Shown here one piece after another: positions 215 through 47,770 of a stretch of 64,000 nt of DNA. The position numbers and the translations under genes were made by a program. The notes under the pieces are model-generated. The model worked only from the letters and a program-made list of their open reading frames with translations, was not told the origin of the DNA and did no database searches. Source of the DNA: a virus (Duplodnaviria; Caudoviricetes); the IMG/VR virus record IMGVR_UViG_3300021387_001774, positions 128,001 through 192,000 of that record. The stretch is one strand, 5' to 3'. The first letter of the stretch is position 1. The number at the start of each line of letters is the position of its first letter.

Positions 215-826
215 TTATTTTCGCTTAATATTATTCTCTATACAGAAATCATCCATAAGTTTTCTACAATTAATATCTACTCTTTCATTTCCTTCTACAC
301 CACTATGACCTGCAACTTTTTCATAAGATATTTTTCTACTGATATTCAAATCATATAATCTTTGCCAAAGTTTTAGATTCTTAATTTCTATCTCTTTACC
401 TTTATCATCATATCTTTTCCAATCATTTGCTTTCCATTTTTTAGACCAGAATAAAATTCCGAATCTCACATAATCTGAATCAAGACAAATTGTACACCAT
501 TTATCCTTTGGAATACCCAGTTCATCCAAATATTCTAAAGCTTTAATTACTGCCATGAGTTCCATAGCATTGTTGGTAGCATCGTCACAAGCTTCCCCAT
601 ATATTTCGTTGGTATTTTCATCATAAAATGACCATGCTCCAACATATCTTTTTCTTTCTGCAGTTGGTATAATTCTGGAACCACCATCAGTATAAATTTT
701 CTTTACACATTCAGGTGGTCTAAATTCTTTTTTCTTAGCTCTAAAGTCTGAAGACTTAGGCTTATATTTTTGTATTTCACTCGGTTCCCATTTAATTTCT
801 CCCTCATCGAAAGTCACTTCTTTCAT
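215..826 (-). CDS. rnhA: Ribonuclease HI
   Basis: IYTDGGS, TNNAMELMAVIKAL, DSDYV, KNLKLWQRL and VAGHSGVEGNERVD match the RNase HI catalytic motifs. Confidence 0.93.
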   Translation of the reverse strand: MKEVTFDEGEIKWEPSEIQKYKPKSSDFRAKKKEFRPPECVKKIYTDGGSRIIPTAERKRYVGAWSFYDENTNEIYGEACDDATNNAMELMAVIKALEYLDELGIPKDKWCTICLDSDYVRFGILFWSKKWKANDWKRYDDKGKEIEIKNLKLWQRLYDLNISRKISYEKVAGHSGVEGNERVDINCRKLMDDFCIENNIKRK

Positions 827-962
827 GGTTTACCTGCCTGATTCTTTTAAGACTTCTTTATCAAATAAAGACTGTTCTTCACAGAACCCATAAGTAGTTT
901 TCTTGGAAGAATGTTTCATCTTCCAAGATTTAAACAGTCTTACCAAGAACTGTTTAATAATA

Positions 963-1478
963 CTACTCACTCTTCTTTCCTTTGATAAAATTCTTGATGA
1001 TTTCATCTTGCTGAGCTTTAGTTTTATTCTTTGATGCAGATTTTGCTTCTTCCATAGCTGTGTCAACTGCGTAGCTAGCACATCCCAAGAAATTTCCAAC
1101 GATTGCTCCACCGGCCATACCAACAAATATTGTAGAACCAATTTGTCTAATTCTACAATTACGTCTATTTTTCTTCAAAGCTTTTTCATGTGATATTTCA
1201 AGTTCTTTAATATTAGTATCATATTCTTCTTGTGTTATATCGCCATTTGCAAGGCGATATTTCTCATGTTCATAAGCTGCGTTAAAACCTGCATTAATTT
1301 CATGTGCGAAATTATCTTTCGTTGCTTCTGCTGAAGACCACAAAAGATCTGATGTAATAAGAGATGTTGCTACAGTACCGGCTGCGAATAAAGTAGACTT
1401 TCTCTTAAGTGATCTCAATTCTTTGTTCTCTGGTTTCTTAAGAAACTCTTTAAGTTCTTTCTTTTCTTCTTTGGTCAT
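963..1478 (-). CDS. Hypothetical protein with two hydrophobic/glycine-rich segments
   Basis: Start moved to ATG 1478 (SD AAGGAGGG at 1486-1493); segments LFAAGTVATSLI and IFVGMAGGAIVGNFLG; own promoter motif at 1533-1542. Confidence 0.65.
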   Translation of the reverse strand: MTKEEKKELKEFLKKPENKELRSLKRKSTLFAAGTVATSLITSDLLWSSAEATKDNFAHEINAGFNAAYEHEKYRLANGDITQEEYDTNIKELEISHEKALKKNRRNCRIRQIGSTIFVGMAGGAIVGNFLGCASYAVDTAMEEAKSASKNKTKAQQDEIIKNFIKGKKSE

Positions 1479-1532
1479 ATTTTGACCCTCCTTAAAATAT
1501 AATTTAACAGAATATATCTTTCTGTCACTCAT

Positions 1533-1542
1533 ATAATATATA
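1533..1542 (-). promoter_or_regulatory. Phage promoter motif TATATATTAT
   Basis: Exact 10-mer that recurs in intergenic DNA upstream of genes across the window. Confidence 0.65.
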
Positions 1543-1548
1543 ATTATA

Positions 1549-1577
1549 AAAAGAGTTGGTATTTAACCAACTCTTTT
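1549..1577 (-). terminator. Intrinsic terminator
   Basis: AAAAGAGTTGGT-attta-ACCAACTCTTTT 12-bp stem immediately after the stop of the 1582 ORF. Confidence 0.75.
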
Positions 1578-1581
1578 ATTT

Positions 1582-3654
1582 TTATTTATATTCTTTAGCT
1601 AATACTTCGTTTGTACGATGTTGATCTTTTAATATATAATATTGCTCATCTTTATCAAACTTATTCAAATTTACACATAACATGAATTTCTTTGTTTCTC
1701 TATTGAATATATAGAACTGATATTCTGGATCAGGTTTCAGTACTTCTTCACGATTTATAGCAAAGAAATCATTCTTGTCTTTAAAATAAAATTGTAGATC
1801 GTCTCTTACTTCTACTACTTCTGCTAGTACAGGTATAAAATCTCCATCAACACTCTTTGTATAGTATTGATAATCTGGCGAAGCAATGCAGAAATCTTGT
1901 GTCTTTATAGGTACGAATGTATCGTTCTCGAGACTCTTTACAAGATAATGCCATCCTCTACGATGTGCAAACTTCCAGAAGTATTCACTACCTACAGTTA
2001 AGAAGAAAGTTTTATCATAATAAAATCTAGAGCCATTTTCATCTACACCATCAAGTGTTGCTGTAAATGAATCATTATCTTTAGTAGAAGTACCATCGCT
2101 ACCATTATTACTAGTACTATCATCAAGATAATATTGTTTTGTAATTGGATTATATCTATAAGTACCTGTTCCAAATTTACTTTTCTTTGTATGAGTTATA
2201 TATTGGAAAAGTATTTTATAAACATTTCCTTTACCCATATTTATAATATCTTTAAATGTAGTTCCAGTTTTATCAAGAATAATACCAGCATTATAAAGTT
2301 TATTTAAAATATATTCAATCTTTGTTTGATATATTTCCTTATTTATAAAAATATCGATATAATATGGAACCATAAGATCACAATCATGTACTGTAATAGT
2401 AAAATTCTCATCAACTTCATATTTGTCTTTTGATAATGGTTCATTATGTTTATAAATATCTATATCAAAAAGTCTGTTAAACTCTTCTTTACTTTTTATT
2501 GTATCTAATAACGCACTTATTATATAATAAGCTGAAGGAGTATCATTTGGATCTATTACTTCATCGAGGATGTTGAACTTTTCTTCTTTAGTACTCATCA
2601 TAATTTCATATTCTGTATAAAATAGATTCCAACGTTTATCTACTGTTAATCTTTTACGATCATCTTTAAACACTTCTTTAAAAGTCATTATATTAGAACG
2701 ATTCTTATAATCCTTTGTAGAAGACAGTCGGATGTAATGATCGTTCTTTCTTCCACGAATTATAGCTGGTACATTAGTAATAAAACTAATAGGGTTAGCA
2801 TATTCCATCCAACCTGAAGTTGTAACTTCAAATCCGGTATAAGCTCCACCTTTTTTAGTACCTTCATCACCATCAGGACGTTCTATTCTAAATGTGATAT
2901 ATTGTGTTCTTGCTAATGAATACACATAATTCGTAACGCCTGTTTCTGTATCTTGTTCTCTAAATGGTTTAATAGCTTTATTAGAAAAATCATAAAGATA
3001 TTCTGTAAAACGATCATTAATTCTATTTCGATAATTTCGTTTATCCTCAGAATCTCCAACCATTTTTTCTAGCATATCCATCTCATATTTAAATACAGAT
3101 TTCTTTATATATTCCATCATTAAGTTTGGAAGTAATATCTTTGTTTCTACTGGAATAACTTGAACATACATGTGTTTAAGATTTGAATCACAGTAGTTAA
3201 ACATAGAAAGTTGATCAGCCTTGGTTTGTAATTGTATTCTAATATCAAAATTATTTCTAATAGTATAATCATTAGAACAAAGAATTACACCATATGGATC
3301 ATAAAAGAAAGGTTTATATCCGGTAAGATCTGTATCAATCATAAATGCACCAGGTTGTTGATTAGGATTCCAGAAGTTACCAAATACTTCGTCCATATTA
3401 TTTTTACCCTGATTAACATTCATTCTAAGAGCAGGCTGTAAAATCTTTTGACCTGGAGCAGTTTTCTGTAATTCTCCCGTTTGTTCATTAATTATGTATG
3501 ATGAAGCGGCGGAAGATTGTGTATTTAAGAAAATATGATTAAAAAATCCAGGAGAGAATCTACTTATAAACCATTCTAGAACTCTCTTAGCTATATCATC
3601 TTGAAATATTTTATTACTTGTTGATGGGAATGTTCCCAAACGTATTGTTCCCAT
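1582..3654 (-). CDS. Large hypothetical protein, probable virion structural protein
   Basis: ~690-aa ORF; start at ATG 3654 with GAGGTG SD; C-terminal Tyr-rich repeats shared with the 45575 and 49753 ORFs; structural role is inference. Confidence 0.6.
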   Translation of the reverse strand: MGTIRLGTFPSTSNKIFQDDIAKRVLEWFISRFSPGFFNHIFLNTQSSAASSYIINEQTGELQKTAPGQKILQPALRMNVNQGKNNMDEVFGNFWNPNQQPGAFMIDTDLTGYKPFFYDPYGVILCSNDYTIRNNFDIRIQLQTKADQLSMFNYCDSNLKHMYVQVIPVETKILLPNLMMEYIKKSVFKYEMDMLEKMVGDSEDKRNYRNRINDRFTEYLYDFSNKAIKPFREQDTETGVTNYVYSLARTQYITFRIERPDGDEGTKKGGAYTGFEVTTSGWMEYANPISFITNVPAIIRGRKNDHYIRLSSTKDYKNRSNIMTFKEVFKDDRKRLTVDKRWNLFYTEYEIMMSTKEEKFNILDEVIDPNDTPSAYYIISALLDTIKSKEEFNRLFDIDIYKHNEPLSKDKYEVDENFTITVHDCDLMVPYYIDIFINKEIYQTKIEYILNKLYNAGIILDKTGTTFKDIINMGKGNVYKILFQYITHTKKSKFGTGTYRYNPITKQYYLDDSTSNNGSDGTSTKDNDSFTATLDGVDENGSRFYYDKTFFLTVGSEYFWKFAHRRGWHYLVKSLENDTFVPIKTQDFCIASPDYQYYTKSVDGDFIPVLAEVVEVRDDLQFYFKDKNDFFAINREEVLKPDPEYQFYIFNRETKKFMLCVNLNKFDKDEQYYILKDQHRTNEVLAKEYK

Positions 3655-3699
3655 AGTAAAACACCTCATTTATCATCGTTTATATTCCTTTGTCTTCAA

Positions 3700-4063
3700 T
3701 TACTGTTCAAACTATATAGTCTAATTATATTTATGGAAGATAGAAATAGAGTAGGGTGCTGTAACACCCTACTCTATAAATTTAATTATCTTTCAAGGAG
3801 GTGATTTTTATGTATCAGTACTGGTATTCCATAAACGACAATGGGGTACTAAAATCAGATTATACTTATCTTACGAGAGATGAGTATATTAAGGTTACTG
3901 GACATACTCCAGAATTCATGGGAGCATATAGAGTTGCATAACTTTACTCTCATGAAACCTTATCGAAGAAAGATAATATACTATAATGTATATTTATTAA
4001 TTAAAAAAATAAACTCTCAGAGATATCTGAGAGTTTAACAGGTCAACTAACAGTACCTGTTTT
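3700..4063 (+). repeat. Copy 1 of duplicated structured small-ORF cassette
   Basis: Shares near-identical ~105-nt leader, 3' AAGAAAGATAATATACTATAATGTATATT block and two terminal hairpins with 45136-45573. Confidence 0.9.
3810..3941 (+). CDS. 43-aa peptide of cassette copy 1
   Basis: SD AAGGAGGTGA at 3795-3804; MYQYWYSINDNGVLKSDYTYLTRDEYIKVTGHTPEFMGAYRVA; homologous to 45252..45419. Confidence 0.8.
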   Translation: MYQYWYSINDNGVLKSDYTYLTRDEYIKVTGHTPEFMGAYRVA

Positions 4064-4100
4064 ATTTTTTATCATTCAAGTTTATATGTTACATAGAGTG

Positions 4101-4304
4101 TTAATGGATCTCCAAGATTCTGAATATATGAGGATCTCCAAAATGACAACGTTTATCATTTTTACATTTTTTCAAATATGGACACCGCATTTTCATAGAT
4201 GTAGGACATCTTACAAAAGGAGGAACCCTATACTTATCTACAGTTTCTTTAGCTTTTTCTTTAATCTCTTTCATAATCTTCATAGAAATTTGTTTTGTTT
4301 TCAT
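4101..4304 (-). CDS. Small Cys-rich hypothetical protein (67 aa)
   Basis: ATG 4304 with AAGGAG SD; CPTSMKMRCPYLKKCKNDKRCH suggests metal binding. Confidence 0.6.
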   Translation of the reverse strand: MKTKQISMKIMKEIKEKAKETVDKYRVPPFVRCPTSMKMRCPYLKKCKNDKRCHFGDPHIFRILEIH

Positions 4305-4314
4305 ATTATTCTCC

Positions 4315-5826
4315 TTAGTTCTTAATAAGAACTGGATCGATATTGAATATCTTTTTATCCATATCGAATGTATCACATAAAGGACAAATGTAATGAGACA
4401 AACCAGGAGCACCAGCAGACTGTCCTTCAATAAGATTGATATTTCCTAGGTAGTCAATTGGGAATCTTCTTAAATTTGTACTTACTCTACTCGTCTTTTC
4501 TGATGGAGAACCAGCTCCAGTCTTTGTAGCCATTAATAATGTATTTGTTAATGAATCGTCATTCGATTCACTAGAGAATTTAGCAATATTCATACCAGTT
4601 ACTTCTGGTGAAATCTTACCAATAATACTATTGATAATAATCGTTGATTTAATTTTGAATACATCCAATAGACCGTCAATAGATTTAAGTTTTTCTGGTG
4701 TGTTAATAAATCTGTAAATCTTTTGTGTAAACATCTTGATAAACGGGGAAATAAGATATTCAGATAAACGAATACGTTTATTCTGTAATCCATCATCTTT
4801 CGAAGTTAATGTTGCATAGTTTACAAATATCCATCTAGTTACTGAAAATATATTATTTCTTTCTGTTCCAGGTACCAATTGTCTAATAATACCTGCTGTA
4901 TGGAAATCCAAAGCGTTAATAAATGTTTTAAGTAATGCTACACCTTTATCTAATGATTTCTGGATATTAAGATTTTCACCAAGTAATGATGTCCATCTTA
5001 CAGGATTTCTAATATAATTCATATCCATTGTACGTTTTTGTGTAGCAAGAATCGTTGCTACAAACTGTTGTAATACACGATTTTTGTCAAATGCTTCTTT
5101 ATCGACTCCAAGGAATACTGATCCAAACTTGAATACATACTTATCCTTAGGGATTCCTGTACCGACATCTCCTGAATAGATTTCTATATATTTTTCTGCA
5201 CCAAAGTATTTTAATGTTTTAAAGAAACCATATCTAGCAAAATAATATATTAATACTGGAATAGATTTCCTTTCAGTAATATAGATCATGATCTTAGAAG
5301 TAATATATTTATTACCATAAATGTCAGTAATAGTAGCTTTTTCACGTTCGAATTTTATAGCTCTTGTAATCGTTTTAAGAACCAAAACATTTTTCTTTGT
5401 AAATGTAATAGCGTCAATAATTTGTAATGGACAAGAATATTTATTTCCTCTAATATAGAAATGAGCATTATCATACAACATTGGAACCCAAATTGAGAAT
5501 GATTGTTTAACTTTCTGATTACCAAACATACATTCAAATTCAAATATAGCTTCTTTAGCATATGTATCAGAAATATGAATATGAACTTCGTTCTTAGGTG
5601 CGGTTTTAACTCCACCATCATCTTTATTCATATCAAGCATTTTAGAACGAATATTCTGATATCGATATCCATTATACCTGATATATTCTGGTGCTAACTG
5701 TACAATAGCTTTACAAGCTTCATCGATATACTTGGCCATTTCATCATTAGCACGCATATTATAAATAAGATCATTATTGAACTTATTATCATTAATCCTT
5801 GAAAAGTTTGCTATCACATCTAACAT
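4315..5826 (-). CDS. Phage multisubunit RNA polymerase beta subunit, N-terminal half (non-virion type, phiKZ gp123/AR9 gp105-like)
   Basis: FYIRGNKY, NKRIRLSEYL, and RRFPIDYLGNINLIEGQSAGAPG, which corresponds to the beta motif R.vHpshyGRicpieTpeGpniG. Confidence 0.8.
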   Translation of the reverse strand: MLDVIANFSRINDNKFNNDLIYNMRANDEMAKYIDEACKAIVQLAPEYIRYNGYRYQNIRSKMLDMNKDDGGVKTAPKNEVHIHISDTYAKEAIFEFECMFGNQKVKQSFSIWVPMLYDNAHFYIRGNKYSCPLQIIDAITFTKKNVLVLKTITRAIKFEREKATITDIYGNKYITSKIMIYITERKSIPVLIYYFARYGFFKTLKYFGAEKYIEIYSGDVGTGIPKDKYVFKFGSVFLGVDKEAFDKNRVLQQFVATILATQKRTMDMNYIRNPVRWTSLLGENLNIQKSLDKGVALLKTFINALDFHTAGIIRQLVPGTERNNIFSVTRWIFVNYATLTSKDDGLQNKRIRLSEYLISPFIKMFTQKIYRFINTPEKLKSIDGLLDVFKIKSTIIINSIIGKISPEVTGMNIAKFSSESNDDSLTNTLLMATKTGAGSPSEKTSRVSTNLRRFPIDYLGNINLIEGQSAGAPGLSHYICPLCDTFDMDKKIFNIDPVLIKN

Positions 5827-6048
5827 TTATTTTGACTCCTTTCTTCGTCGTTGTTTAGCAAGATATTTTAGTCTCTCTTTACGAGACATATGTTTCAGTT
5901 TATCATATGGAGGATTAGCCATTCCTTTCATATGAGTTTTCTCAAATGTTATAGTTTTACTTTCCCTTTCATCATTTGGTAAAAATAAATTATACATACT
6001 CATCGCAGCCATAATTGGTAGAAGTCGTTTATGTGTATTACTATCCAA
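5827..6048 (-). CDS. Small basic hypothetical protein
   Basis: 73-aa ORF, TTG start behind GGAGG, abuts the RNAP gene. Confidence 0.55.
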   Translation of the reverse strand: MDSNTHKRLLPIMAAMSMYNLFLPNDERESKTITFEKTHMKGMANPPYDKLKHMSRKERLKYLAKQRRRKESK

Positions 6049-6097
6049 AAATAAACCTCCAAAAATTATATAGAAATATTAAAGACTTTTTAAAATT

Positions 6098-6122
6098 CTA
6101 CTAGGACAAATTGTCCTAGTAG
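6098..6122 (-). terminator. Hairpin downstream of ligase
   Basis: CTACTAGGACAA-a-TTGTCCTAGTAG inverted repeat. Confidence 0.6.
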
Positions 6123-6129
6123 TTATAAA

Positions 6130-8082
6130 TTAATATTTTTGTACGAGTTTTAAGAACTCTTCTGGACTTATTATAGGTACTTTATATTTCATAGCTTTTA
6201 GTACCTTCGATGTAGATTTTTCATTAGTCACTAAGTAATTTGTTGATGTTTTAACATCTTTATCATATCTAAATGCTATATTTGTATTAAATACAGTTTT
6301 CACAAACTTATCTTTTGACTCAAATCCTTGTACTTCACCTGAGATACAATATGTAATTGTATTATCATTTGGATCTTCCACATCATGAAAATAATTCTTA
6401 CAGAGTTCCATAGATTTCTCTAAATCCATACGTTTCTGTTTATCATTATACCATTTCATAAGAGTTATATCAAATACTTCTTCAAGTACTGGTTTCTTTT
6501 TAAGAGTTTCACAATAATCTATAAACATCTTATAAGATCTGATACTGTGATCAAGCAAAGATGTTTCACCAATATACGGAATATTCATTGCTGCTATAAG
6601 TTTTATTTCCGTAAGATTATCAAACATATTCTCTAAAGCTTTCTTGAAAATGATTGGCCTTTTACCGCCACCATCTGGATCATTATCATAGAATACATTT
6701 ATTTTGCTTTCGTATTTGTAAGTTCCATTGATTGGTCTAAAGTTTTCAAAGAATGTATACAAATATAATTCTTTATTTTCTTCAGCAATCATATCAGAAA
6801 TACCTTTAATAACTGCTTCACCAATATTCTTTCCATCAAGAATCTTAACTAGATTCTCTAACTTAGAATTATATACTGCTTTACATCCAAATTCATTATC
6901 ACACATTAAATCTTGATATATCGGAACTAATTTCTTTCCACAACATGGACAATGTTCGATATCGATATACTTTATATCTACACCAGGCTTATTATAGCAA
7001 TCAAATATTTTTGGAATTACATCATTAGCTCTTTTTACAAGAACTGTAGTTCCAATACCTATATTCTTTTTCTTTATATTCTGATAATTATCAAGTGTAG
7101 CCCTACTAACATTTGTATCTAACAAAGTTATTGGTTTTATTTCTGCTACAAATGAAACTTTACGCCTATTAACATATGGAATTATATTTACTATTTCTGA
7201 TTCGGCAAATTCTGCTGGAGGTTTAAGAGCCATATTAAAACGATTGAACGAAGATATCTTATATCTAGAATTCAAATCATTATATGTGTTCTGATCTCCG
7301 TCAATTGTCATTATGATACCATCAGTTTCATAAGGCCACTTATTTCTATAAAGACTTACATATTTATTATAGATCTCTGTAACATTTGAAGTCCTTTCTA
7401 CAGGAACTATGTAAAAATGTTGATCAAGATCTGTCAATATTTGATTTATTTTCTTTATTTTATCTCCACGATTTGTGAATTCAAATTGTTTATCATAAGT
7501 ATGTGTATCATATATTACAAATGAAACATAATTGACTTCTGGGGTATATTCTTTTCTTTTCATTATACCAGAACATACATTTCGTAATGGACCATTAAAA
7601 CGATTTCTATGTTTTTTGAATATAATAAATTCTCCACGTAATTCTGAATTAGGTAAATACTTTGTTGGAACTCCATCTATCATTTTACCAAATGGTACAA
7701 GAGCTCCAACTAAACCATCACCTCTTGTAGAAGCAAATTCATAATTACCTTTTGAATCATATACTATCTTTCCAGATATACCGTCAAGTTTTGGATCTAT
7801 CCACACCGATTGTAATCTAAGACTATTATACCATTTCTCTGCGTCTTCGGCTGTCTGAACTTTTTGCATAGATAGCATCGGTATTCTATGCTCAACTTCT
7901 TCAGAATCTTTAGATACTTTATTTCCTACTTTATCAAAGTAGGGATTATTAGGATCTAAAGTTTTCAATCTTCTTTCATAAAAATCAAATTCCTCATCGG
8001 GGATATCTGATTCACCATTATAATATTTTTCTCTATATACATTAAGCTTTTTGACTAAGTCATTAATTTCATTAGTAACCAT
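6130..8082 (-). CDS. ligA: NAD-dependent DNA ligase
   Basis: YYNGESDIPDEEFD, HRIPMLSMQK, KLDG adenylation motif, ELRGE, DGII, RATL, Cys4 zinc finger and C-terminal BRCT-like domain. Confidence 0.95.
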   Translation of the reverse strand: MVTNEINDLVKKLNVYREKYYNGESDIPDEEFDFYERRLKTLDPNNPYFDKVGNKVSKDSEEVEHRIPMLSMQKVQTAEDAEKWYNSLRLQSVWIDPKLDGISGKIVYDSKGNYEFASTRGDGLVGALVPFGKMIDGVPTKYLPNSELRGEFIIFKKHRNRFNGPLRNVCSGIMKRKEYTPEVNYVSFVIYDTHTYDKQFEFTNRGDKIKKINQILTDLDQHFYIVPVERTSNVTEIYNKYVSLYRNKWPYETDGIIMTIDGDQNTYNDLNSRYKISSFNRFNMALKPPAEFAESEIVNIIPYVNRRKVSFVAEIKPITLLDTNVSRATLDNYQNIKKKNIGIGTTVLVKRANDVIPKIFDCYNKPGVDIKYIDIEHCPCCGKKLVPIYQDLMCDNEFGCKAVYNSKLENLVKILDGKNIGEAVIKGISDMIAEENKELYLYTFFENFRPINGTYKYESKINVFYDNDPDGGGKRPIIFKKALENMFDNLTEIKLIAAMNIPYIGETSLLDHSIRSYKMFIDYCETLKKKPVLEEVFDITLMKWYNDKQKRMDLEKSMELCKNYFHDVEDPNDNTITYCISGEVQGFESKDKFVKTVFNTNIAFRYDKDVKTSTNYLVTNEKSTSKVLKAMKYKVPIISPEEFLKLVQKY

Positions 8083-8175
8083 ACTAATTTCCTCCGTATA
8101 TTACTTTAATAATATATATTTAAGAAAAAAATAAAAAGAGCAGAATTAACTACTCTTTTTATTTAAAATGTGAAA

Positions 8176-8646
8176 TCATTCAATATAACCATCTTCTAAC
8201 CGTTTGATAACAACTTCCATAGCATCATCGATATTCATTTCTAAACAATTTTCAAGACAAATAGATATGCATTTGAAATTAAGATCTGATATACATTCAT
8301 TATTTATCGTTAAATATGGACTATAATAATGCATGTCAACATATCCTGGTTTAACTTTAGCATAATTATAAATACTAAAATGCGTATCAAATATATTCGT
8401 AAAACTCTCAACAATATCTATATTTGTTTCAAATGTGATTTTTATATAATTACATCGATTGTTATATCTTATAAATATATCATCTATATTTTCAACATCT
8501 TTCAATAATGTAGCTAATGCTCTCATACCTTTCGTCAGTTTTGCAGATTTTGCTATTTTTTCCTGTCTTTTTCTCTCTTCTTTTGCTTCTTCAATAGTCT
8601 TGCGTTTATCATCACATTTTTTCAATAAATCTCCATACTTACCCAT
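8176..8646 (-). CDS. Hypothetical protein
   Basis: 156-aa ORF with AGGAGG SD, own promoter and terminator. Confidence 0.7.
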   Translation of the reverse strand: MGKYGDLLKKCDDKRKTIEEAKEERKRQEKIAKSAKLTKGMRALATLLKDVENIDDIFIRYNNRCNYIKITFETNIDIVESFTNIFDTHFSIYNYAKVKPGYVDMHYYSPYLTINNECISDLNFKCISICLENCLEMNIDDAMEVVIKRLEDGYIE

Positions 8647-8748
8647 AGTATTATCCTCCTAAATTATTATAATAAGTACAACGTACTCATTAATATAATA
8701 TATAATTAAAAAAAGAGAGATTATTATAATCCCTCTTTCAATAAGCTA

Positions 8749-8850
8749 CTAATATTTCATTAGTAACTTTTCATAATAATTCACTGCAGCTAATGCAGCT
8801 ACAGTGAATCCTAGCATTATGATCCCTGTGATTACAACTAAATTGATCAT
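8749..8850 (-). CDS. 33-aa single-transmembrane peptide
   Basis: MINLVVITGIIMLGFTVAALAAVNYYEKLLMKY; AGGAG SD; own promoter (8914-8923), 5' hairpin and terminator. Confidence 0.65.
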   Translation of the reverse strand: MINLVVITGIIMLGFTVAALAAVNYYEKLLMKY

Positions 8851-8993
8851 TTTTAATCTCCTATGTTTTTATAATTTCCGGAAATAGAGTCTTTCTCTAT
8901 TCCTTACATTAATATAATATATAATCAACATAGGAGGTTTAACAGTAGTTAAAAAAAATAAAGGTGGAGTATAAATTCCACCTTTATTCTATC

Positions 8994-9251
8994 TTACTTA
9001 ATTACATTTGAGCAATCATGATAAATTTTTAATAAAAGTTCACGCACCACATTATAATTTCTTATAATATTAACAATTGAGTTACTATCAATCGATGGAT
9101 ATTCATCTGGATTCTTAGCGGAATCCGCTAATCCACTCATAATATTATCAATTGTATCGAGACTAAGTTTCAATGATGTATAAATATGTGATGATAACAA
9201 TGAAACATCATTAGCTAATTTCAGTTCTTTCTCATTGTAGTTCTTTTCCAT
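8994..9251 (-). CDS. Hypothetical protein
   Basis: ATG 9251 behind AGGAGAG; own promoter and terminator. Confidence 0.6.
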   Translation of the reverse strand: MEKNYNEKELKLANDVSLLSSHIYTSLKLSLDTIDNIMSGLADSAKNPDEYPSIDSNSIVNIIRNYNVVRELLLKIYHDCSNVIK

Positions 9252-9391
9252 TCGCTCTCCTTTCTTTATCACAATATCTTATGACCATAGATAAAGATAT
9301 GGCATATGTAGTTTTCTCTCTACATCGTTTCATAAATATAATATATAAATAAAAAAAATAAAGGTAGGATATAATCCTACCTTTATTTTAA

Positions 9392-9829
9392 TTAAAGTTC
9401 TTCATCAACGATTCGTTTGAATTCATCCCAACTTATTTTATCAAAAGATATTGGAATATCTGATTTATTATCTTTGAAATCTTCTTCACATAATGTGCGA
9501 TAAATGGCGATAATTTTATCAGCATTTGGATTTTTTGATATAACGTGGAGCATATAAAATAAATCTGTTTTATGAAGAGTCAATTTATTATGACATTTGA
9601 ACCAAGCAGAAATCATTTGTTTAGTATAACCCATTTGTTCGCTCAATTTAGTTAAATTGATTCCTCCGATAATCATGGATGAATAAAGAAATTCAAATCT
9701 TATCGATTTAATATCTGTAATTTTATATCGATGATAACTCATATTACGCTCCTTCAGTTCTTTTTTCTGTTTATAATATTTTTTCTGATATTCTTTATTG
9801 TACTCTCTCATTTCTTCTTTAGTTTTCAT
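9392..9829 (-). CDS. Putative helix-turn-helix DNA-binding protein
   Basis: GINLTKLSEQMGYTKQMISAWFK resembles an XRE/Cro HTH; basic N-terminus. Confidence 0.55.
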   Translation of the reverse strand: MKTKEEMREYNKEYQKKYYKQKKELKERNMSYHRYKITDIKSIRFEFLYSSMIIGGINLTKLSEQMGYTKQMISAWFKCHNKLTLHKTDLFYMLHVISKNPNADKIIAIYRTLCEEDFKDNKSDIPISFDKISWDEFKRIVDEEL

Positions 9830-9977
9830 ATTTCTTTTCTTCCTTATGTTTATAGTAGTATCATCTCTACTTCGATAATATAATTAATAATAAGTGTAAC
9901 ACACTCATTAATATAATATATAATTAAAAAAATAAAGGTAGGATAAATTATATCCTACCTTTTAATTAATTAAGTAA

Positions 9978-10904
9978 TTATTTCATATTAAAACATTCGT
10001 CAATAAAATATGCTAAAAGATTTTTAGCAGAAGCTAATTCTTTAGATTCATCAATAGTACTATAGAATTCACAATCTTTAATTTTAGGTTCAATATACTT
10101 ATTATAACGCCTTTTAATACTTTCTAATTCAAATATATCATTTTCTCTAAGCTCATTACACATAGCAATCATATTTTTATCAGTTCCATATCTTTCAGGA
10201 TAATATTTTTCAACAATATTGAATATCTGATTCTTTATGTATTGTACAATAGAAATAGTTACAGAATAATTTGAATTTTTCAATTCGTCTGATTGTTTAA
10301 TCGAATTTCTTAATTCAGATTTTGATAAAGTATTTTTGTGGAACAAAGATTCATATACGAATTTCAAAATATATTCGCTAGTTTCTTTATCACTCTTTTC
10401 GATTATTTGATAAGCTCGTTCGAGTAAAAGCATTTTATATGTTTTAATCAACTTACTTATATCTATACACATTTTCTGCATCATTGTTGATCCATCTATG
10501 ATTTTTGTTTTATTATGTTTTAGATTTACAGTACTACCAAAAAGATTTTCAAATCCAGTTCCAGTAAATAAATCGTTGAATTCTTTATCTGAATCTTTAG
10601 TTTTAAGAGCTAATTCATCAGGATAATATTTTTCAACAATATTAATTATATTATTAAATGTTAATAATAAAATATTTTTATCATCAATTAAACTATTAGT
10701 TAAATTTCCGAGAGTTACACTAGTTTTTTCAAACATTTCCGTAGGGTTGAAACCACCAAAATATGTTTTATGGTGTCTTTCCAGTTCATTTTGTGTAGCT
10801 TCTTTTTCTCGTTTTTCTTGAATTTTAGTTATAACGATTGGTAAACCAATACTAATACCAAGTATTCCTAATGCTTCAAGAATTGATTTAACAGTATCAT
10901 TCAT
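9978..10904 (-). CDS. Hypothetical protein with N-terminal membrane anchor
   Basis: ILEALGILGISIGLPIVI hydrophobic N-terminus; internal duplicated motif NIVEKYYP. Confidence 0.65.
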   Translation of the reverse strand: MNDTVKSILEALGILGISIGLPIVITKIQEKREKEATQNELERHHKTYFGGFNPTEMFEKTSVTLGNLTNSLIDDKNILLLTFNNIINIVEKYYPDELALKTKDSDKEFNDLFTGTGFENLFGSTVNLKHNKTKIIDGSTMMQKMCIDISKLIKTYKMLLLERAYQIIEKSDKETSEYILKFVYESLFHKNTLSKSELRNSIKQSDELKNSNYSVTISIVQYIKNQIFNIVEKYYPERYGTDKNMIAMCNELRENDIFELESIKRRYNKYIEPKIKDCEFYSTIDESKELASAKNLLAYFIDECFNMK

Positions 10905-11045
10905 AATTCTTATTCATCCTTATGTTATATTAGTAGTAACATCACTACTTCCTATTTAATTAATATTTATAAGAATCAACGATCCTTTTACATAAATATA
11001 ATATATAATTAAAAAAAGAAAGGACCGAAGTCCTTTCTTTTACTT

Positions 11046-11249
11046 TTAATCTTTTCTAATTAATGTCCTTATAAAGATTTCCATATCAATTTTCTTATCA
11101 AAATTAAGTTTTCTTGTTTTTCCACTAATAAAATGTATTTCTAATTGACATTTATTTTCACTTTCTTCATACGGTAATATTTCTTCGACTGTATCAGGAT
11201 TTATACAATAGTTCGTTTTTTCAAAAACTTTTATAAGTCCATTACCCAT
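11046..11249 (-). CDS. Small hypothetical protein
   Basis: 67-aa ORF directly after the tubulin gene, followed by a C(UUCG)G-loop terminator. Confidence 0.55.
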   Translation of the reverse strand: MGNGLIKVFEKTNYCINPDTVEEILPYEESENKCQLEIHFISGKTRKLNFDKKIDMEIFIRTLIRKD

Positions 11250-11250
11250 A

Positions 11251-12537
11251 TTAGATCAAGTCCATGAGGTCTTTATGATTGACTACCTTTGCATTAAAGG
11301 TATCGCTCAATTCCTCAGCATCTTTCTGAACAGTGCTGAAACCAGTAGACTGTTCTTTCATAACATTGTGTTTCTTCTGATTAGCTACTCTCAAACGTCT
11401 TTCATTATCACGAAGATCTTCTACGACAGCATTGAGAGACTTGTAACCGAAGAATCCGACCATGGAAGCTGAGATAAGATCCTTAGCTACCTGATCTACA
11501 TTCAAACCTGATTCTTTAAGATCAAAGAACACTGATGTTGTATCCAAAGACATTACATCAATAGAATTCATCATATTCTTTGCAGCTGATTCTTCTTTGC
11601 TAAGATCTTCTACATCATGTCTAAGCATAAGAACTGTTCTTGCTACAGACTGACCTCTTGGTGTCGCATAGTTGAACTGATTCTGCTTTGTAATTGTTGT
11701 AAATGATGAACAACCAGGAATACGAAGAACGTTAATCTTGTCCTGAAGGTCCATACACTTAATGCTTGAATTCATTTCTACACCGAAGAACTTAACCCAA
11801 GGTGCTACAATTCTAGCATTAATAATATTAAACATTTCGTCTGTATCATTGAACTTAACATCATCTGGAAGATTGTTATCTGCAATGAAGAAGTTACAAA
11901 GACCCAGATCTACAAACTTCTGGATATCCAAGAAGCATTCGATATTGTTCTGCAAGTTAGTAGAACCTGATTCAATTCTACAACGAGGTACAAGACCTAC
12001 TACTACAGGACGTGGTACATTTCTCATCATATCATCAATTTTGTATTCTTTATCACCAATTCTGAATGATTCACAACTGTTAATATAGTTTGCAAGTGTT
12101 GCTGTGAATGCCGGACCAATACCTGAACCAGTACCACCATCAGCACTAAATACACTGATAATAATTGTTTGTTCTGTTGGATGGAAGAGGACCTCTTCAT
12201 AGTATCCAATAAACGCTGTTAATGCATCAAGATCTTCTTTTCCATAAATGTTCGTTTGTTTGAAGTTTTTATAGAAACTCTTAGCAAGGTCTCTATTCTT
12301 TCCTGCTCCGTTTACATTTACACCACCGATTTTAAATGTCTGCTGATCAGGAAGATCAACCTTCTTAAAATCATCTGTTGATGTGTTAATTGCGATACGA
12401 TAAGGATTATTTGGAAGCATTGATGCAAGCATTTTACCAATGTTGTATCCACCCTGTCCCTGTGAAATAATCACAAATCGCACCTTCTGCTCATCGCCTT
12501 TCTTTACGACAACTGTCTCGTTACCTGTTTCGTTCAT
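11251..12537 (-). CDS. Tubulin/FtsZ-family GTPase (PhuZ/TubZ-like)
   Basis: GQGGYNIG, AINTS, GAGKNR, GGTGSGIGP tubulin signature, DN and MDLQD (T7-loop-like) motifs. Confidence 0.9.
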   Translation of the reverse strand: MNETGNETVVVKKGDEQKVRFVIISQGQGGYNIGKMLASMLPNNPYRIAINTSTDDFKKVDLPDQQTFKIGGVNVNGAGKNRDLAKSFYKNFKQTNIYGKEDLDALTAFIGYYEEVLFHPTEQTIIISVFSADGGTGSGIGPAFTATLANYINSCESFRIGDKEYKIDDMMRNVPRPVVVGLVPRCRIESGSTNLQNNIECFLDIQKFVDLGLCNFFIADNNLPDDVKFNDTDEMFNIINARIVAPWVKFFGVEMNSSIKCMDLQDKINVLRIPGCSSFTTITKQNQFNYATPRGQSVARTVLMLRHDVEDLSKEESAAKNMMNSIDVMSLDTTSVFFDLKESGLNVDQVAKDLISASMVGFFGYKSLNAVVEDLRDNERRLRVANQKKHNVMKEQSTGFSTVQKDAEELSDTFNAKVVNHKDLMDLI

Positions 12538-12647
12538 ATACGAAAACCTCCTGAATGTATTTCTACTCCAATAATATATATTTATAATTATTTTAGATAT
12601 AAAAAAATAAAAGGTAGGATAGTGAAAACACTATCCTACGTAATTAC

Positions 12648-13073
12648 TTATTTTCGATTTGGATTGGCTTTAAACATATCCTCTGGATCATAAATAATTT
12701 TACCATTTCCCCCATGATAATGAATGTAATATTTTTGATAAACTTCATAATCCGATTTACTTAATATCTTTTCTGCTTCAGCTAACACATTTATAATTTC
12801 TTCCTTAGTAATAGGATTACGTTTATAATAGTTTTTCTTCCCTTTATTTGAATTAATTTCTTTCATAACTCTCTTATGAATGTCATAGTACTTAGCAATA
12901 TTCGGTGGTCGTGAATACACCTTAGTACCACAATCATTCATAAGATTATTCTTAATATCTATTCCCATCTTAATTTTATCTGCTGTTTTACAGACAAAAT
13001 CAGGATCAGAACATTTTTGTTTGACGATTTCGATTATACTACTTAATATTCCTTTTTTCATTTCTATAATCAC
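12648..13073 (-). CDS. Hypothetical protein
   Basis: 141-aa ORF following the SbcC-like gene. Confidence 0.6.
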   Translation of the reverse strand: MIIEMKKGILSSIIEIVKQKCSDPDFVCKTADKIKMGIDIKNNLMNDCGTKVYSRPPNIAKYYDIHKRVMKEINSNKGKKNYYKRNPITKEEIINVLAEAEKILSKSDYEVYQKYYIHYHGGNGKIIYDPEDMFKANPNRK

Positions 13074-15965: not shown

Positions 15966-16039
15966 GGCTCTGTAGCTCAGTTGGATAGAGCAATTGCCTT
16001 CTAAGCAATGGGTCGGCGGTTCGAGCCCGTCCAGGGTCG
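15966..16039 (+). tRNA. tRNA-Arg (anticodon TCT)
   Basis: Cloverleaf: acceptor GGCTCTG/CAGGGTC, D arm GCTC/GAGC, anticodon arm ATTGC-CTTCTAA-GCAAT, T arm GGCGG-TTCGAGC-CCGTC. Confidence 0.95.
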
Positions 16040-45135: not shown

Positions 45136-45573
45136 TTACTGTTCAAACTATACTGTCTAATCATATATTATATTTATGGAAGATAGAAATAGAGTAGGGT
45201 GTTACCGCACCCTACTCTATAAATTTAATTATCTTTCAAGGAGGTGATTGTATGGTAAGAAAATACATCTATTTTACATCCAAAATGGATGAGAATGGAA
45301 ATGTATGTAAAGACCCCGATTTTATTCTTCTCGATAGAGATGAATATAAACGAACCCTAGGGGTTTATCCAGAACAAACTGGAGCCAGCTCAATGCTAGT
45401 TCCAAAAGACTGGAGATAAGACATACTTTCTTATTCTCTCATGGGCTCAAAGAAAGATAATATACTATAATGTATATTATTAAATAGAAAAATAAACTCC
45501 ATAATGAAGACTCGTTGAAGACATTATGGAGTTTGACAGGTCAACTGATATTAACGTATCAGTACCTGTTTTT
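45136..45573 (+). repeat. Copy 2 of duplicated structured small-ORF cassette
   Basis: Homologous to 3700-4063 in leader, peptide and 3' elements. Confidence 0.9.
45252..45419 (+). CDS. 55-aa peptide of cassette copy 2
   Basis: SD AAGGAGGTGA at 45238-45247; MVRKYIYFTSKMDENGNVCKDPDFILLDRDEYKRTLGVYPEQTGASSMLVPKDWR. Confidence 0.8.
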   Translation: MVRKYIYFTSKMDENGNVCKDPDFILLDRDEYKRTLGVYPEQTGASSMLVPKDWR

Positions 45574-45574
45574 T

Positions 45575-47770
45575 TTATTTTTTAAGCGTATAATAATCTC
45601 TAGTAAATTCACAAATATAATAATCTTTATCTACTTGGAACTCTGTATTCGTTGAAGGAACTCTTACATATTCATCGCCTTCTTTTGTGAAGTAGACTTG
45701 ATGTTGATTATAACCTAAAGCCTTTTCATCTTGGGAAACAAACCTGAATTCCTTTTTAAATGACGTTACATGAGCATCACCAATGTATGTTTTCTTTTCA
45801 GAGTCATATCTATAATAGACTGTATTCTCTATTGGACCATAAAGAAGTTCAGTATAGTTAAGTTTATGATAAGCATCATTTATCTTATCTCTTCTTACAA
45901 CTTGAAGTTTATAAGCAGAAACTCCTTCAAATACATCATCATATCCATGTCTATACCATTTCTCTGGAGCAAAGAAAACATTTTCACATTTATTTACAAA
46001 GTCATGACAAACACCATTCATTATAACAATATCATCAATATTCCAGTTTTCATTTATGAAATAGTTCTTTGTAGGTTTATTAAGTTTTATTTCTTCTCTA
46101 TTTTCTACAACTTCGATATCATAAGCTTTAGCAGCAATATTATCAAATTCGATAATAGCGTAAGTTCTATTTCTGAATTGTTCTACAACTACATCAAATG
46201 CTGAATGAGCATAATGATAGTTATCAGAACCAGAGGTTTCTCTCCACTCTTCTAGAGCTTGAGAATATTCTTGATATGCTGCATTGATACCTTCTTCATC
46301 GTCATTATGTAACTTTAAAAAGTCTTCAATCTTTGGTGATGCTACAATATCGTGAGATACTTGAGTAGAAAGATATTCTCTCATTCTTGAATACATTTCT
46401 GTGTAAAGAATATCGAATTCTAATTCGATAGTATTCAAGAATATAGATCCATCATCTTGTACTTCCCAAGAATCTTTATCAACAATCGTATTACCACAAA
46501 GAAGAATACTTTTATCTTTATTGACCTTATGTGAGAAATTAAGTTTATTTACCAACCAATAAGATTTGTTTGCTTCTTCTGCTACCGTTTTTAAAACCTT
46601 TCCCGTATGTAAAGGTTCAGTAAATGACGTTATAGAAATATTATCCCACTTGTAAATACGGATATCGAATACATAATTGTAACCAATCTTTTCTCTAGGT
46701 ATATCATATTTGATTATATCTATACCTTCTGCATTCTTTTCACCTACAGTTTTAGTACGAACTAAATAATCATCAATATTCACACCACTAATAAGTGTTT
46801 TAGGTTGTATAGCAGCATATTTAACAACGTCTTTAAGATATATTTGATTTTCTGATGGTCCTGGTATATAACCAACAATAACACCATTGAGAATGATAAA
46901 CAGATTAGTTAAATCTGTATATGGTTTATTCTCATTATCAATAAATGTCAATAATAAGTCATCAAACTTATGATTATTATTATTAGTATAAGTACCATTT
47001 GCAACAGTTTTTTCATCAATACTTGCTAATTTATAAGAGAATCTTGGCGAATTAGTAGCATGTACAGAATCTTTAGCATCCTTTTCTGTATCTGTAAATA
47101 CAATTCTAGGACACTCTTCAAACTTATATGTACCATCACCACGTTCAACAGAGTAAATGTAAGCGCTCTTATTGTATTGATCTCTTACAAAATACATAGC
47201 TTTAGGAATTTTGTTAACATCGGTAATTTGACAAAGAGTTACGAAATAATTATCTGTAAATGTACAATCGAATATTGTATTATCGCACACTTTAGTATAT
47301 ATAGAAGATTCCATAATATTTTCATTAATTGTACCTGTAAAGAAAGTACTGAAAATATTATCGGAATAATTTTTTACTGCAAAGTGAGGTCTAATCTTTC
47401 CAAGATCTATCCACTTACCATACTTATTTTTATAGTATTCATGTTGGAGTCCATATTTAAAAATCATTTCACGAATTACATCTAAGAAACGATATTGTCT
47501 ATGGGCTATATTTTTTTCTTCAGCAGTATCTATATAAGATGGTAAGACATGAAAAATAGGATGTAGACCAGATCTATCAACTCCAGCTTCATAGTTCTCA
47601 ATTCCATATGTAATATTTTGATCAGTTTGAGCATAGAGATAATCCAACGTAACTGCAATAGGAGTTATTCCATGCCCAAAATCAAATACTACAGTTCTAT
47701 TATAGAATTGATCAACCTTTTTAAAAGCTTGAGAAGTAGATATTACAGATTCAATAGCTAAATCTTCCAT
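45575..47770 (-). CDS. Probable virion structural protein
   Basis: 731 aa, beta-rich, in an operon of three large genes; C-terminal Tyr-rich repeats. Confidence 0.6.
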   Translation of the reverse strand: MEDLAIESVISTSQAFKKVDQFYNRTVVFDFGHGITPIAVTLDYLYAQTDQNITYGIENYEAGVDRSGLHPIFHVLPSYIDTAEEKNIAHRQYRFLDVIREMIFKYGLQHEYYKNKYGKWIDLGKIRPHFAVKNYSDNIFSTFFTGTINENIMESSIYTKVCDNTIFDCTFTDNYFVTLCQITDVNKIPKAMYFVRDQYNKSAYIYSVERGDGTYKFEECPRIVFTDTEKDAKDSVHATNSPRFSYKLASIDEKTVANGTYTNNNNHKFDDLLLTFIDNENKPYTDLTNLFIILNGVIVGYIPGPSENQIYLKDVVKYAAIQPKTLISGVNIDDYLVRTKTVGEKNAEGIDIIKYDIPREKIGYNYVFDIRIYKWDNISITSFTEPLHTGKVLKTVAEEANKSYWLVNKLNFSHKVNKDKSILLCGNTIVDKDSWEVQDDGSIFLNTIELEFDILYTEMYSRMREYLSTQVSHDIVASPKIEDFLKLHNDDEEGINAAYQEYSQALEEWRETSGSDNYHYAHSAFDVVVEQFRNRTYAIIEFDNIAAKAYDIEVVENREEIKLNKPTKNYFINENWNIDDIVIMNGVCHDFVNKCENVFFAPEKWYRHGYDDVFEGVSAYKLQVVRRDKINDAYHKLNYTELLYGPIENTVYYRYDSEKKTYIGDAHVTSFKKEFRFVSQDEKALGYNQHQVYFTKEGDEYVRVPSTNTEFQVDKDYYICEFTRDYYTLKK

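Follow-up and report, generated by a model that had tools for sequence, protein, structure and literature searches.

A repeated small-gene cassette of an AR9-like jumbo phage with a predicted three-way anti-SD switch and a predicted late antisense RNA

The cassettes and their genome setting

The stretch of DNA analysed here (the window, 64 kb) is part of a virus record of 263,686 bp with a GC content of 29.5%. The phage is an AR9-like jumbo phage of the rumen with a genome of the lytic type. The minus-strand gene at 4315-5826, upstream of copy 1 of the cassette, codes for the N-part of the beta subunit of a non-virion RNA polymerase, whose nearest counterparts are in the Bacillus phages AR9 and PBS1 (28% identity). 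Relatives of the phage were found in gut metagenomes, mostly from ruminants.

The window contains two cassettes, both on the plus strand, copy 1 at approximately 3700-4070 and copy 2 at 45137-45576. A third (copy 3) lies in the same genome outside the window, at 215,879-216,227. The ORFs of copies 1, 2 and 3 were designated types A, B and C, respectively. The features of the two window copies are the following:

Copy 1
3701..3734, plus strand: early-promoter region, TACTGTTCAAAC element upstream of a damaged TATATTAT core; compared with relatives (L015, L032) 7 nt are missing, by deletion or assembly slip (AR9 early consensus, PMC5312081)
3735..3742, plus strand: leader GGAAGATA from the predicted +1; tract partner 1 (ON fold) according to fold analysis
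3746..3777, both strands: GC-rich hairpin whose loop varies; resembles a terminator on the minus strand, where it would end the antisense RNA
3785..3794, plus strand: pyrimidine tract ATTATCTTTC, predicted anti-SD switch segment and 5' arm of the long-range helix
3795..3802, plus strand: SD AAGGAGGT; tract partner 2 (local hairpin)
3810..3941, plus strand: ORF of 43 aa, type A, soluble beta-beta-alpha family
3915..3956, plus strand: stem spanning the stop codon
3968..3977, plus strand: 3' arm GAAAGATAAT, tract partner 3; corresponds to nt +3 to +12 of the predicted antisense RNA
3977..3989, minus strand: late-type promoter ACA-6N-TA-TA, predicted +1 at 3979
3737..3979, minus strand: predicted antisense RNA of ~243 nt, closed by the 10-bp helix
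4010..4070, both strands: two-way terminator module, minus-strand hairpin (4010-4037) followed by plus-strand hairpin and U-tract

Copy 2
45137..45177, plus strand: intact early promoter TATATTAT-6N-G with +1 at 45178, and upstream TACTGTTCAAAC element
45178..45185, plus strand: leader GGAAGATA
45189..45220, both strands: GC-rich hairpin, terminator-like on the minus strand
45228..45237, plus strand: pyrimidine tract ATTATCTTTC
45238..45245, plus strand: SD
45252..45419, plus strand: ORF of 55 aa, type B
45413..45438, plus strand: stem across the stop codon
45452..45461, plus strand: 3' arm GAAAGATAAT
45461..45473, minus strand: late-type antisense promoter, predicted +1 at 45463
45180..45463, minus strand: predicted antisense RNA of ~284 nt, helix-closed
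45494..45576, both strands: two-way terminator module

A comparison set of 21 full and some partial cassettes was assembled from protein searches, contig look-ups and a DNA pattern scan; it spans at least nine ORF types (A-I), with protein identities of 32-55% between types. There are one or two cassettes per locus, and 3' arms have been exchanged between ORF types. A search of a viral contig collection yielded no relatives. In relatives of the phage, two different cassettes stand in tandem at each of three loci, the terminator of one joined to the promoter of the other (L015:2926-3642; L011:2534-3276; L019:709-1451; L024:1000-1760). The present genome lacks types D and F, and L015 combines a type A ORF with a type D 3' arm.

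Promoters, terminators and the encoded protein

The early motif TATATTAT-6N-G, which matches that of AR9, occurs at 67 sites of the genome. It is exact in copies 2 and 3, where the transcript would start at the G of the motif; in copy 1, 7 nt of the core are missing, and the core is intact in a relative. Copy 1 (deletion at 3713-3734) may be silent, or the gap may be an assembly slip in an AT micro-repeat. The element TACTGTT(C)AAAC (3701-3712, 45137-45148 and seven other sites of the genome) precedes some of the early promoters at a constant spacing. Eight of its nine genomic matches are intergenic and promoter-linked, and it is perhaps a second promoter element or a factor site. Elsewhere in the window a tRNA gene (15966-16039) lies immediately behind an early promoter.

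The late motif ACA-6N-TA-TA was enriched upstream of non-early genes (41 regions vs 17 in shuffles), clustered 14-40 nt ahead of start codons and matched the AR9 late promoter (for both AR9 consensus sequences see PMC5312081). A 21-nt element that follows the stop codon and is near-invariant in types A-E is this late motif on the minus strand, with +1 at 3979 and 45463. Its score was about 7-9.3 bits, compared with a lower quartile of 13.3 in the training set, and it is non-canonical in having a G at -2, a base found in 1 of 42 training sites; the core is matched. Among early units, 2 of 55 had a backward late motif near the stop codon, both of them being cassettes; among other genes the count was 2 of 191. 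It recurs in types G and H with different spacers, and types F and I have neither an internal antisense promoter nor the helix. The invariant element was also considered as an early promoter on one or the other strand, a reading that was rejected because the +1 would be wrong and the core mismatched, and because the late motif fits; matches to host sigma-70 promoters on the cassettes were at chance level.

The predicted antisense RNA is 231-284 nt long; its end would lie at the leader hairpin, which on the minus strand resembles a terminator. No antisense ORF was kept in frame or length across the cassettes. Contigs from four RNA runs (window 500-12700) were uninformative: they gave no depth in the 3756-4162 bin, and neighbouring genes were thinly covered in one run. 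The variable hairpin loop was considered as a specificity site for kissing-loop contacts; this is not needed, as terminator loops vary anyway.

The two-way terminator module is generic, the same part being used by unrelated genes in the relatives. Other repeated early mini-cassettes of related phages (L022, L026, L029, L031) carry it behind a gene for an unrelated protein with a hydrophobic N-terminus. The loops of the first and second terminator hairpins, GTTGA and TCAAC respectively, are complementary in types B and C (45494-45569 in the window; L002) and nearly so in L009, and could form a kissing pair; this complementarity is absent in copy 1.

The cassette ORFs code for 43-61 aa and have pN/pS ratios of ~0.15-0.4 within types. 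An AlphaFold model (pLDDT 93) has a beta-hairpin, a helix and a short helix. The likeness to hok and aapA drawn in the initial annotation does not extend to the peptide: the best 19-aa Kyte-Doolittle mean was between -0.31 and 0.65, GRAVY was negative in 11 of 11 cassettes, and the model is a folded beta-beta-alpha structure. The ORF encodes a genuine soluble protein and not a membrane peptide of the hok/AapA/Ibs type. Rfam, Pfam and PHROG profiles gave nothing at gathering score on the cassette, and the protein had no match among PDB sequences or GenBank phages or, by Foldseek, in PDB or BFVD (E>0.1). Further fold searches reached at best Z 3.2 (VIA) and, in the ESM Atlas, a score ≤0.77 with TM ≤0.60 on 34 residues; a weak search found no fused longer form. 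The early timing, the varying number of copies and the divergence among paralogues point to a role directed at the host.

A p56-type uracil-DNA glycosylase inhibitor was considered and set aside; the fold match is weak (Z 3.2, rmsd 5.0), the genome has a dUTPase, and there was no Ugi or ThyA hit. The dUTPase gene, at 194,866-195,483 of the genome (L049), has the canonical trimeric motifs. The presence of a dUTPase and the missing Ugi and ThyA hits suggest ordinary thymine DNA, unlike that of AR9/PBS1.

Three pairing partners of the pyrimidine tract

It was correctly observed in the initial annotation that ATTATCTTTC (3785-3794; 45228-45237) is the exact reverse complement of GAAAGATAAT (3968-3977; 45452-45461) in both window copies. 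When the 35 nt before the start codon were compared with the 60 nt after the stop codon, 3 of 206 other genes had an exact 10-bp inverted repeat, and 6 of 191 had a duplex of ≤ -14.9 kcal/mol in the same geometry. Compared with shuffled 3' regions, the duplex between tract and 3' arm had p values of 0.014 and 0.018 in the two window copies. The helix of a single copy is thus only modestly above chance. Because their arms are identical, the window copies amount to one observation, and the weight of the evidence lies in the comparison with copy 3 and the cassettes of related phages.

In this comparison the inner pairs were counted in a hand-anchored ungapped register (tract plus antisense +1), as a gap introduced by MAFFT had broken the register; the tool's covariation count was restricted to the outer six pairs, which are nearly invariant and showed no covariation. 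In types A (copy 1), B and E the helix consists of 10 Watson-Crick pairs and stops just before the SD. In type C (copy 3) pairs 8-10 are changed on both sides (T-A to C-G, T-A to A-T and C-G to A-T), two-sided changes that represent one evolutionary event, and the helix continues into the SD for a total of 13-14 pairs. In types D and A', 16-18 of 18 positions are paired and the whole SD is covered by way of G-U pairs. The helix reaches into or over the SD in types C, D and A'; in the window copies it leaves the SD uncovered. Among the helix-bearing cassettes cognate duplexes ranged from -13.3 to -23.1 kcal/mol (p 0.002-0.04 vs shuffles). Absence from further homologues had been named as one observation that would refute the proposal, and this applies in part: the helix was kept in types A-E and absent from types F, G and I (p 0.2-0.6). 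Judged from the aligned sequences, the helix is a real, selected RNA pairing in one cassette clade and not in the whole family.

The second partner, also proposed earlier, is the leader segment GGAAGATA at 3735 and 45178, the predicted early +1, which can pair with the tract using one G-U pair. The leader:tract helix proved universal across the cassettes, being formed by different, covarying sequences in five leader classes. Cognate pairs were favoured; for example, in type G the value was -4.6, compared with +0.2 to -0.7 for most non-cognate tracts. A third partner had been overlooked: the tract can form a local hairpin with the SD itself (-6 to -13 kcal/mol in most classes). As anticipated, the folds are mutually exclusive. 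They are also nearly isoenergetic, the three state-constrained ensembles lying within 1-4 kcal/mol of each other. The stems suggested across the stop codons (3917/3947 and 45413/45429) were seen in local folds, but that of copy 2 was replaced in the full-length MFE structure.

In the full-length mRNA the predicted probability of the long-range helix was 0.70 for copy 1, 0.97 for copy 3 and 0.04 for copy 2, and across the cassettes it ranged from 0.00 to 0.99. For full-length copy 2 the predicted OFF state is the SD hairpin, and an adjacent AU hairpin occupies the 3' arm. Folding was also followed as a function of transcript length, with equilibrium folding serving as a proxy for kinetics. When the SD first emerged, the leader held the tract (0.83-0.92) and the SD was free (0.99-1.0). 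Later the SD hairpin took over in copies 2 and 3 and in type D, and the long-range helix reached its maximum (0.96-1.0) when the 3' arm had just been transcribed. At full length SD accessibility was 0.05-0.25, consistent with predicted anti-SD sequestration by the local hairpin or the long-range helix. Cutting copy 1 at the stop codon restored the leader fold and raised SD accessibility from 0.42 to 0.72; in truncated copies 2 and 3 and type D the SD hairpin stayed. The notion of an mRNA that is silent from the start, as in hok or aapA, was not supported: the earliest nascent RNA is predicted to be ON, with leader and tract paired and the SD free, which is the opposite of the behaviour of aapA.

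Two further sequences are of interest with respect to the leader. The stretch L019:1110-1178 is a type C variant in which the leader helix is strengthened and the SD hairpin lost, and is a candidate for a constitutively open natural allele. On the minus strand of the present genome, at 193,863 (L051), the leader fold of the cassettes recurs in a fourth early unit, with leader:tract helix, GC hairpin and the same linker, in a covarying sequence of its own. It precedes an unrelated 105-aa ORF and has neither an anti-SD hairpin nor a backward late promoter. Because the leader fold also stands before this unrelated gene without an anti-SD hairpin, it can be plain 5' structure.

A proposed timed expression unit and its alternatives

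Sequence and comparison support the presence of an early-type sense promoter, a late-type antisense promoter past the stop codon, three predicted tract pairings and a conserved ORF. These elements are best explained if the cassette serves the timed expression of a small, soluble protein made early, with the tract acting as a three-way translational switch. The virion polymerase would fire the early promoter, and the leader would pair with the tract ahead of the emergence of the SD, so that ribosomes could load on the young mRNA. The RNA would then refold into the local tract:SD hairpin; transcription of the 3' arm would add the long-range helix, which abuts (types A, B, E) or covers (types C, D, A') the SD, and translation would be limited to a pulse. 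Later the non-virion polymerase would produce the full-length antisense RNA, which the same helix would close and stabilise, and this RNA would remove leftover mRNA activity. The protein would most likely act on a host component early and be unwanted later, as timing, copy number and variation suggest. We consider this sequence of an early translation pulse, fold-back shut-off and late antisense silencing the best explanation, with a probability of about 0.5. Points against it are the low score and the G at -2 of the antisense promoter, the lack of the long-range helix in types F, G and I and its small share in full-length type B mRNA, the single event behind the two-sided changes, the leader fold in front of the unrelated 105-aa gene, and the damaged early promoter of copy 1. 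The maturation gene of MS2 offers a precedent, in that a transient fold of the 5' UTR permits translation before a stable fold closes the ribosome-binding site (PMC6733600). The cassette resembles it in the order of transient fold and stable closure, the kinetic step being our supposition for the cassette, and differs from it in that the mRNA is that of a DNA phage, the closing arm is 3' of the stop codon, and an antisense RNA is added.

In phages with two multisubunit polymerases gene timing is thought to rest on promoter class alone. Seven late promoters of AR9 drive antisense RNA, and the antisense RNAs, long leaders and leader motifs of that phage have no assigned role (PMC5312081). The present phage has the same early and late promoter classes; the AR9 antisense transcripts were not presented as parts of repeated cassettes that carry a structured switch (PMC5312081), and no homologue of the cassette protein was found in the GenBank phage set. 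The cassette offers a small and testable example of an early gene that mRNA folding together with a late antisense RNA would turn off, with one 10-nt segment predicted to work in both RNAs, and the natural variants with weak, strong or missing helix form a ready allelic series. The 43-61-aa family, well folded, under purifying selection and variable in copy number, shows a pattern that suggests a host-interaction factor.

It may be asked in which of the two RNAs the helix matters. Closing of the antisense RNA by the helix, as originally proposed, was predicted in all types A-E (mean pairing probability 0.70-0.88), more uniformly than in the sense RNA. The arm begins exactly at +3 of the predicted antisense start, and since only its first base lies within the promoter consensus, the arm is not explained by the promoter. 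Several A-C mismatches of the sense helix become G-U pairs in the antisense RNA. These observations would fit a helix whose main purpose is to close the late antisense RNA and protect its 5' end, in which case the mRNA helix would be a by-product and translation would be controlled by the leader and SD hairpins. We regard this as unlikely, though worth serious consideration. Several points speak against it: in the extended helices, G-U pairs available only to the sense RNA are more numerous than A-C positions; the extensions in types C, D and A' fall exactly on the SD; and type G has the antisense promoter and no closing helix. Furthermore, the sense duplex was the stronger in 10 of 10 helix-bearing cassettes tested; both strands folded far better than shuffles, with the stronger z-score on the sense side in 9 of 11 cassettes. 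Our own reading is that the helix serves both RNAs.

Several hallmarks of type I toxin-antitoxin systems (PMC8594479, PMC6733600) are predicted for the cassettes: a hairpin that sequesters the SD, long-distance pairing between 5' and 3' regions (types A-E), and an antisense RNA that overlaps the mRNA completely. Like aapA/IsoA of Helicobacter pylori and hok/Sok, the cassettes combine a short ORF, an anti-SD segment beside the SD, a predicted cis antisense RNA, several copies, and predicted alternative local and 5'-3' long-distance folds (PMC6733600, PMC8594479). The dispersed variant copies with variable loops recall ibs/Sib of Escherichia coli, which shares dispersed paralogues with variable regions and an antisense RNA over the entire ORF (PMC2943612). 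In a classical system of this type the 5'-3' helix would silence the full-length mRNA, 3' processing would activate it, the antisense RNA would neutralise the active form, and the protein would be a toxin serving addiction, a carrier state or exclusion of related phages; the effect of the stop-codon cut on copy 1 (see above) is what such activation would look like. Co-transcriptional silencing has been described for aapA (PMC6733600), and the cassette differs from it and from hok/Sok in that its nascent state is predicted to be ON, its protein is soluble and folded, its predicted antisense RNA spans the whole ORF and leader, and it uses two phage polymerases of different timing in a jumbo phage genome of the lytic type. 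Ibs has 18-19 highly hydrophobic residues and Sib is a constitutive RNA of ~140 nt (PMC2943612), unlike the soluble 43-61-aa cassette protein, whose best 19-aa window does not exceed 0.65, and the late predicted antisense RNA of 230-285 nt. The promoter motifs, early for sense and late for antisense, argue against a constitutive antitoxin produced simultaneously with the mRNA and in excess over it: with its late promoter the predicted antisense RNA would be unable to guard the first wave of an mRNA made from an early one. Taking into account also that the SD hairpin survives truncation in copies 2 and 3 and type D, and that types F and I do without internal antisense promoter and helix, a classical type I system seems rather improbable.

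The timed-pulse reading also has to be weighed against an ordinary mobile early-gene module of shared promoter, leader and terminator parts, in which folding only compacts or stabilises the mRNA, there is no switch, and the backward promoter is weak or silent. Reuse of the terminator module and leader fold by unrelated genes, the one or two copies per locus, the swapping of 3' arms between ORF types and the low score of the antisense promoter are all consistent with such a module. The backward late motif, however, is specific to the cassette gene family and invariant over proteins that are 32-49% identical, and extensions covering the SD occur in two arm lineages; we therefore think this explanation has little chance of being correct. 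In T4-like phages PeSLs, mobile promoter/stem-loop cassettes, also shuffle early genes by means of repeated promoter and terminator parts. They come from an unrelated phage group and have these repeated parts in common with the present cassettes; we know of no backward late promoter or fold-back helix in PeSLs.

A DNA-level role of the inverted repeat, as operator sites for the small protein or as ends for recombination or inversion, is highly improbable: the arms of the window copies are perfectly Watson-Crick and the protein fold is weakly like small DNA-binding domains (I-HmuI C-terminus, Z 3.2), but the arms do not follow the type of the protein (the 3' arm differs between two copies of type A, and one 5' arm is common to A, B, D and E), the variants preserve G-U pairing rather than identity, and inverted orientation was found in 0 of 21 cassettes.

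The cassettes are a new form of small gene with predicted antisense and fold-back control, and the literature search found no paper describing this arrangement. Going further, we suggest only tentatively that they may constitute an undescribed RNA timer of AR9-like jumbo phages, in which a three-state anti-SD switch would allow one burst from the nascent early mRNA, followed by fold-back closure and later by a self-closed antisense RNA from the second polymerase. Parts of type I toxin-antitoxin systems would thus be wired to the early-to-late polymerase change, and the mini-proteins made from them would form a new family, soluble, fast-varying and directed at the host.

In a more distant phage (L009:630-740) an ORF-less mini-unit lies upstream of a cassette and consists of a hairpin with an 8-U minus-strand terminator, an SD, an ATG and a late-type promoter. 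It could give an antisense RNA of ~90 nt with a match of 12-13 nt across the SD of the cassette that follows, and a second late-type promoter is located beyond the terminator of that cassette.
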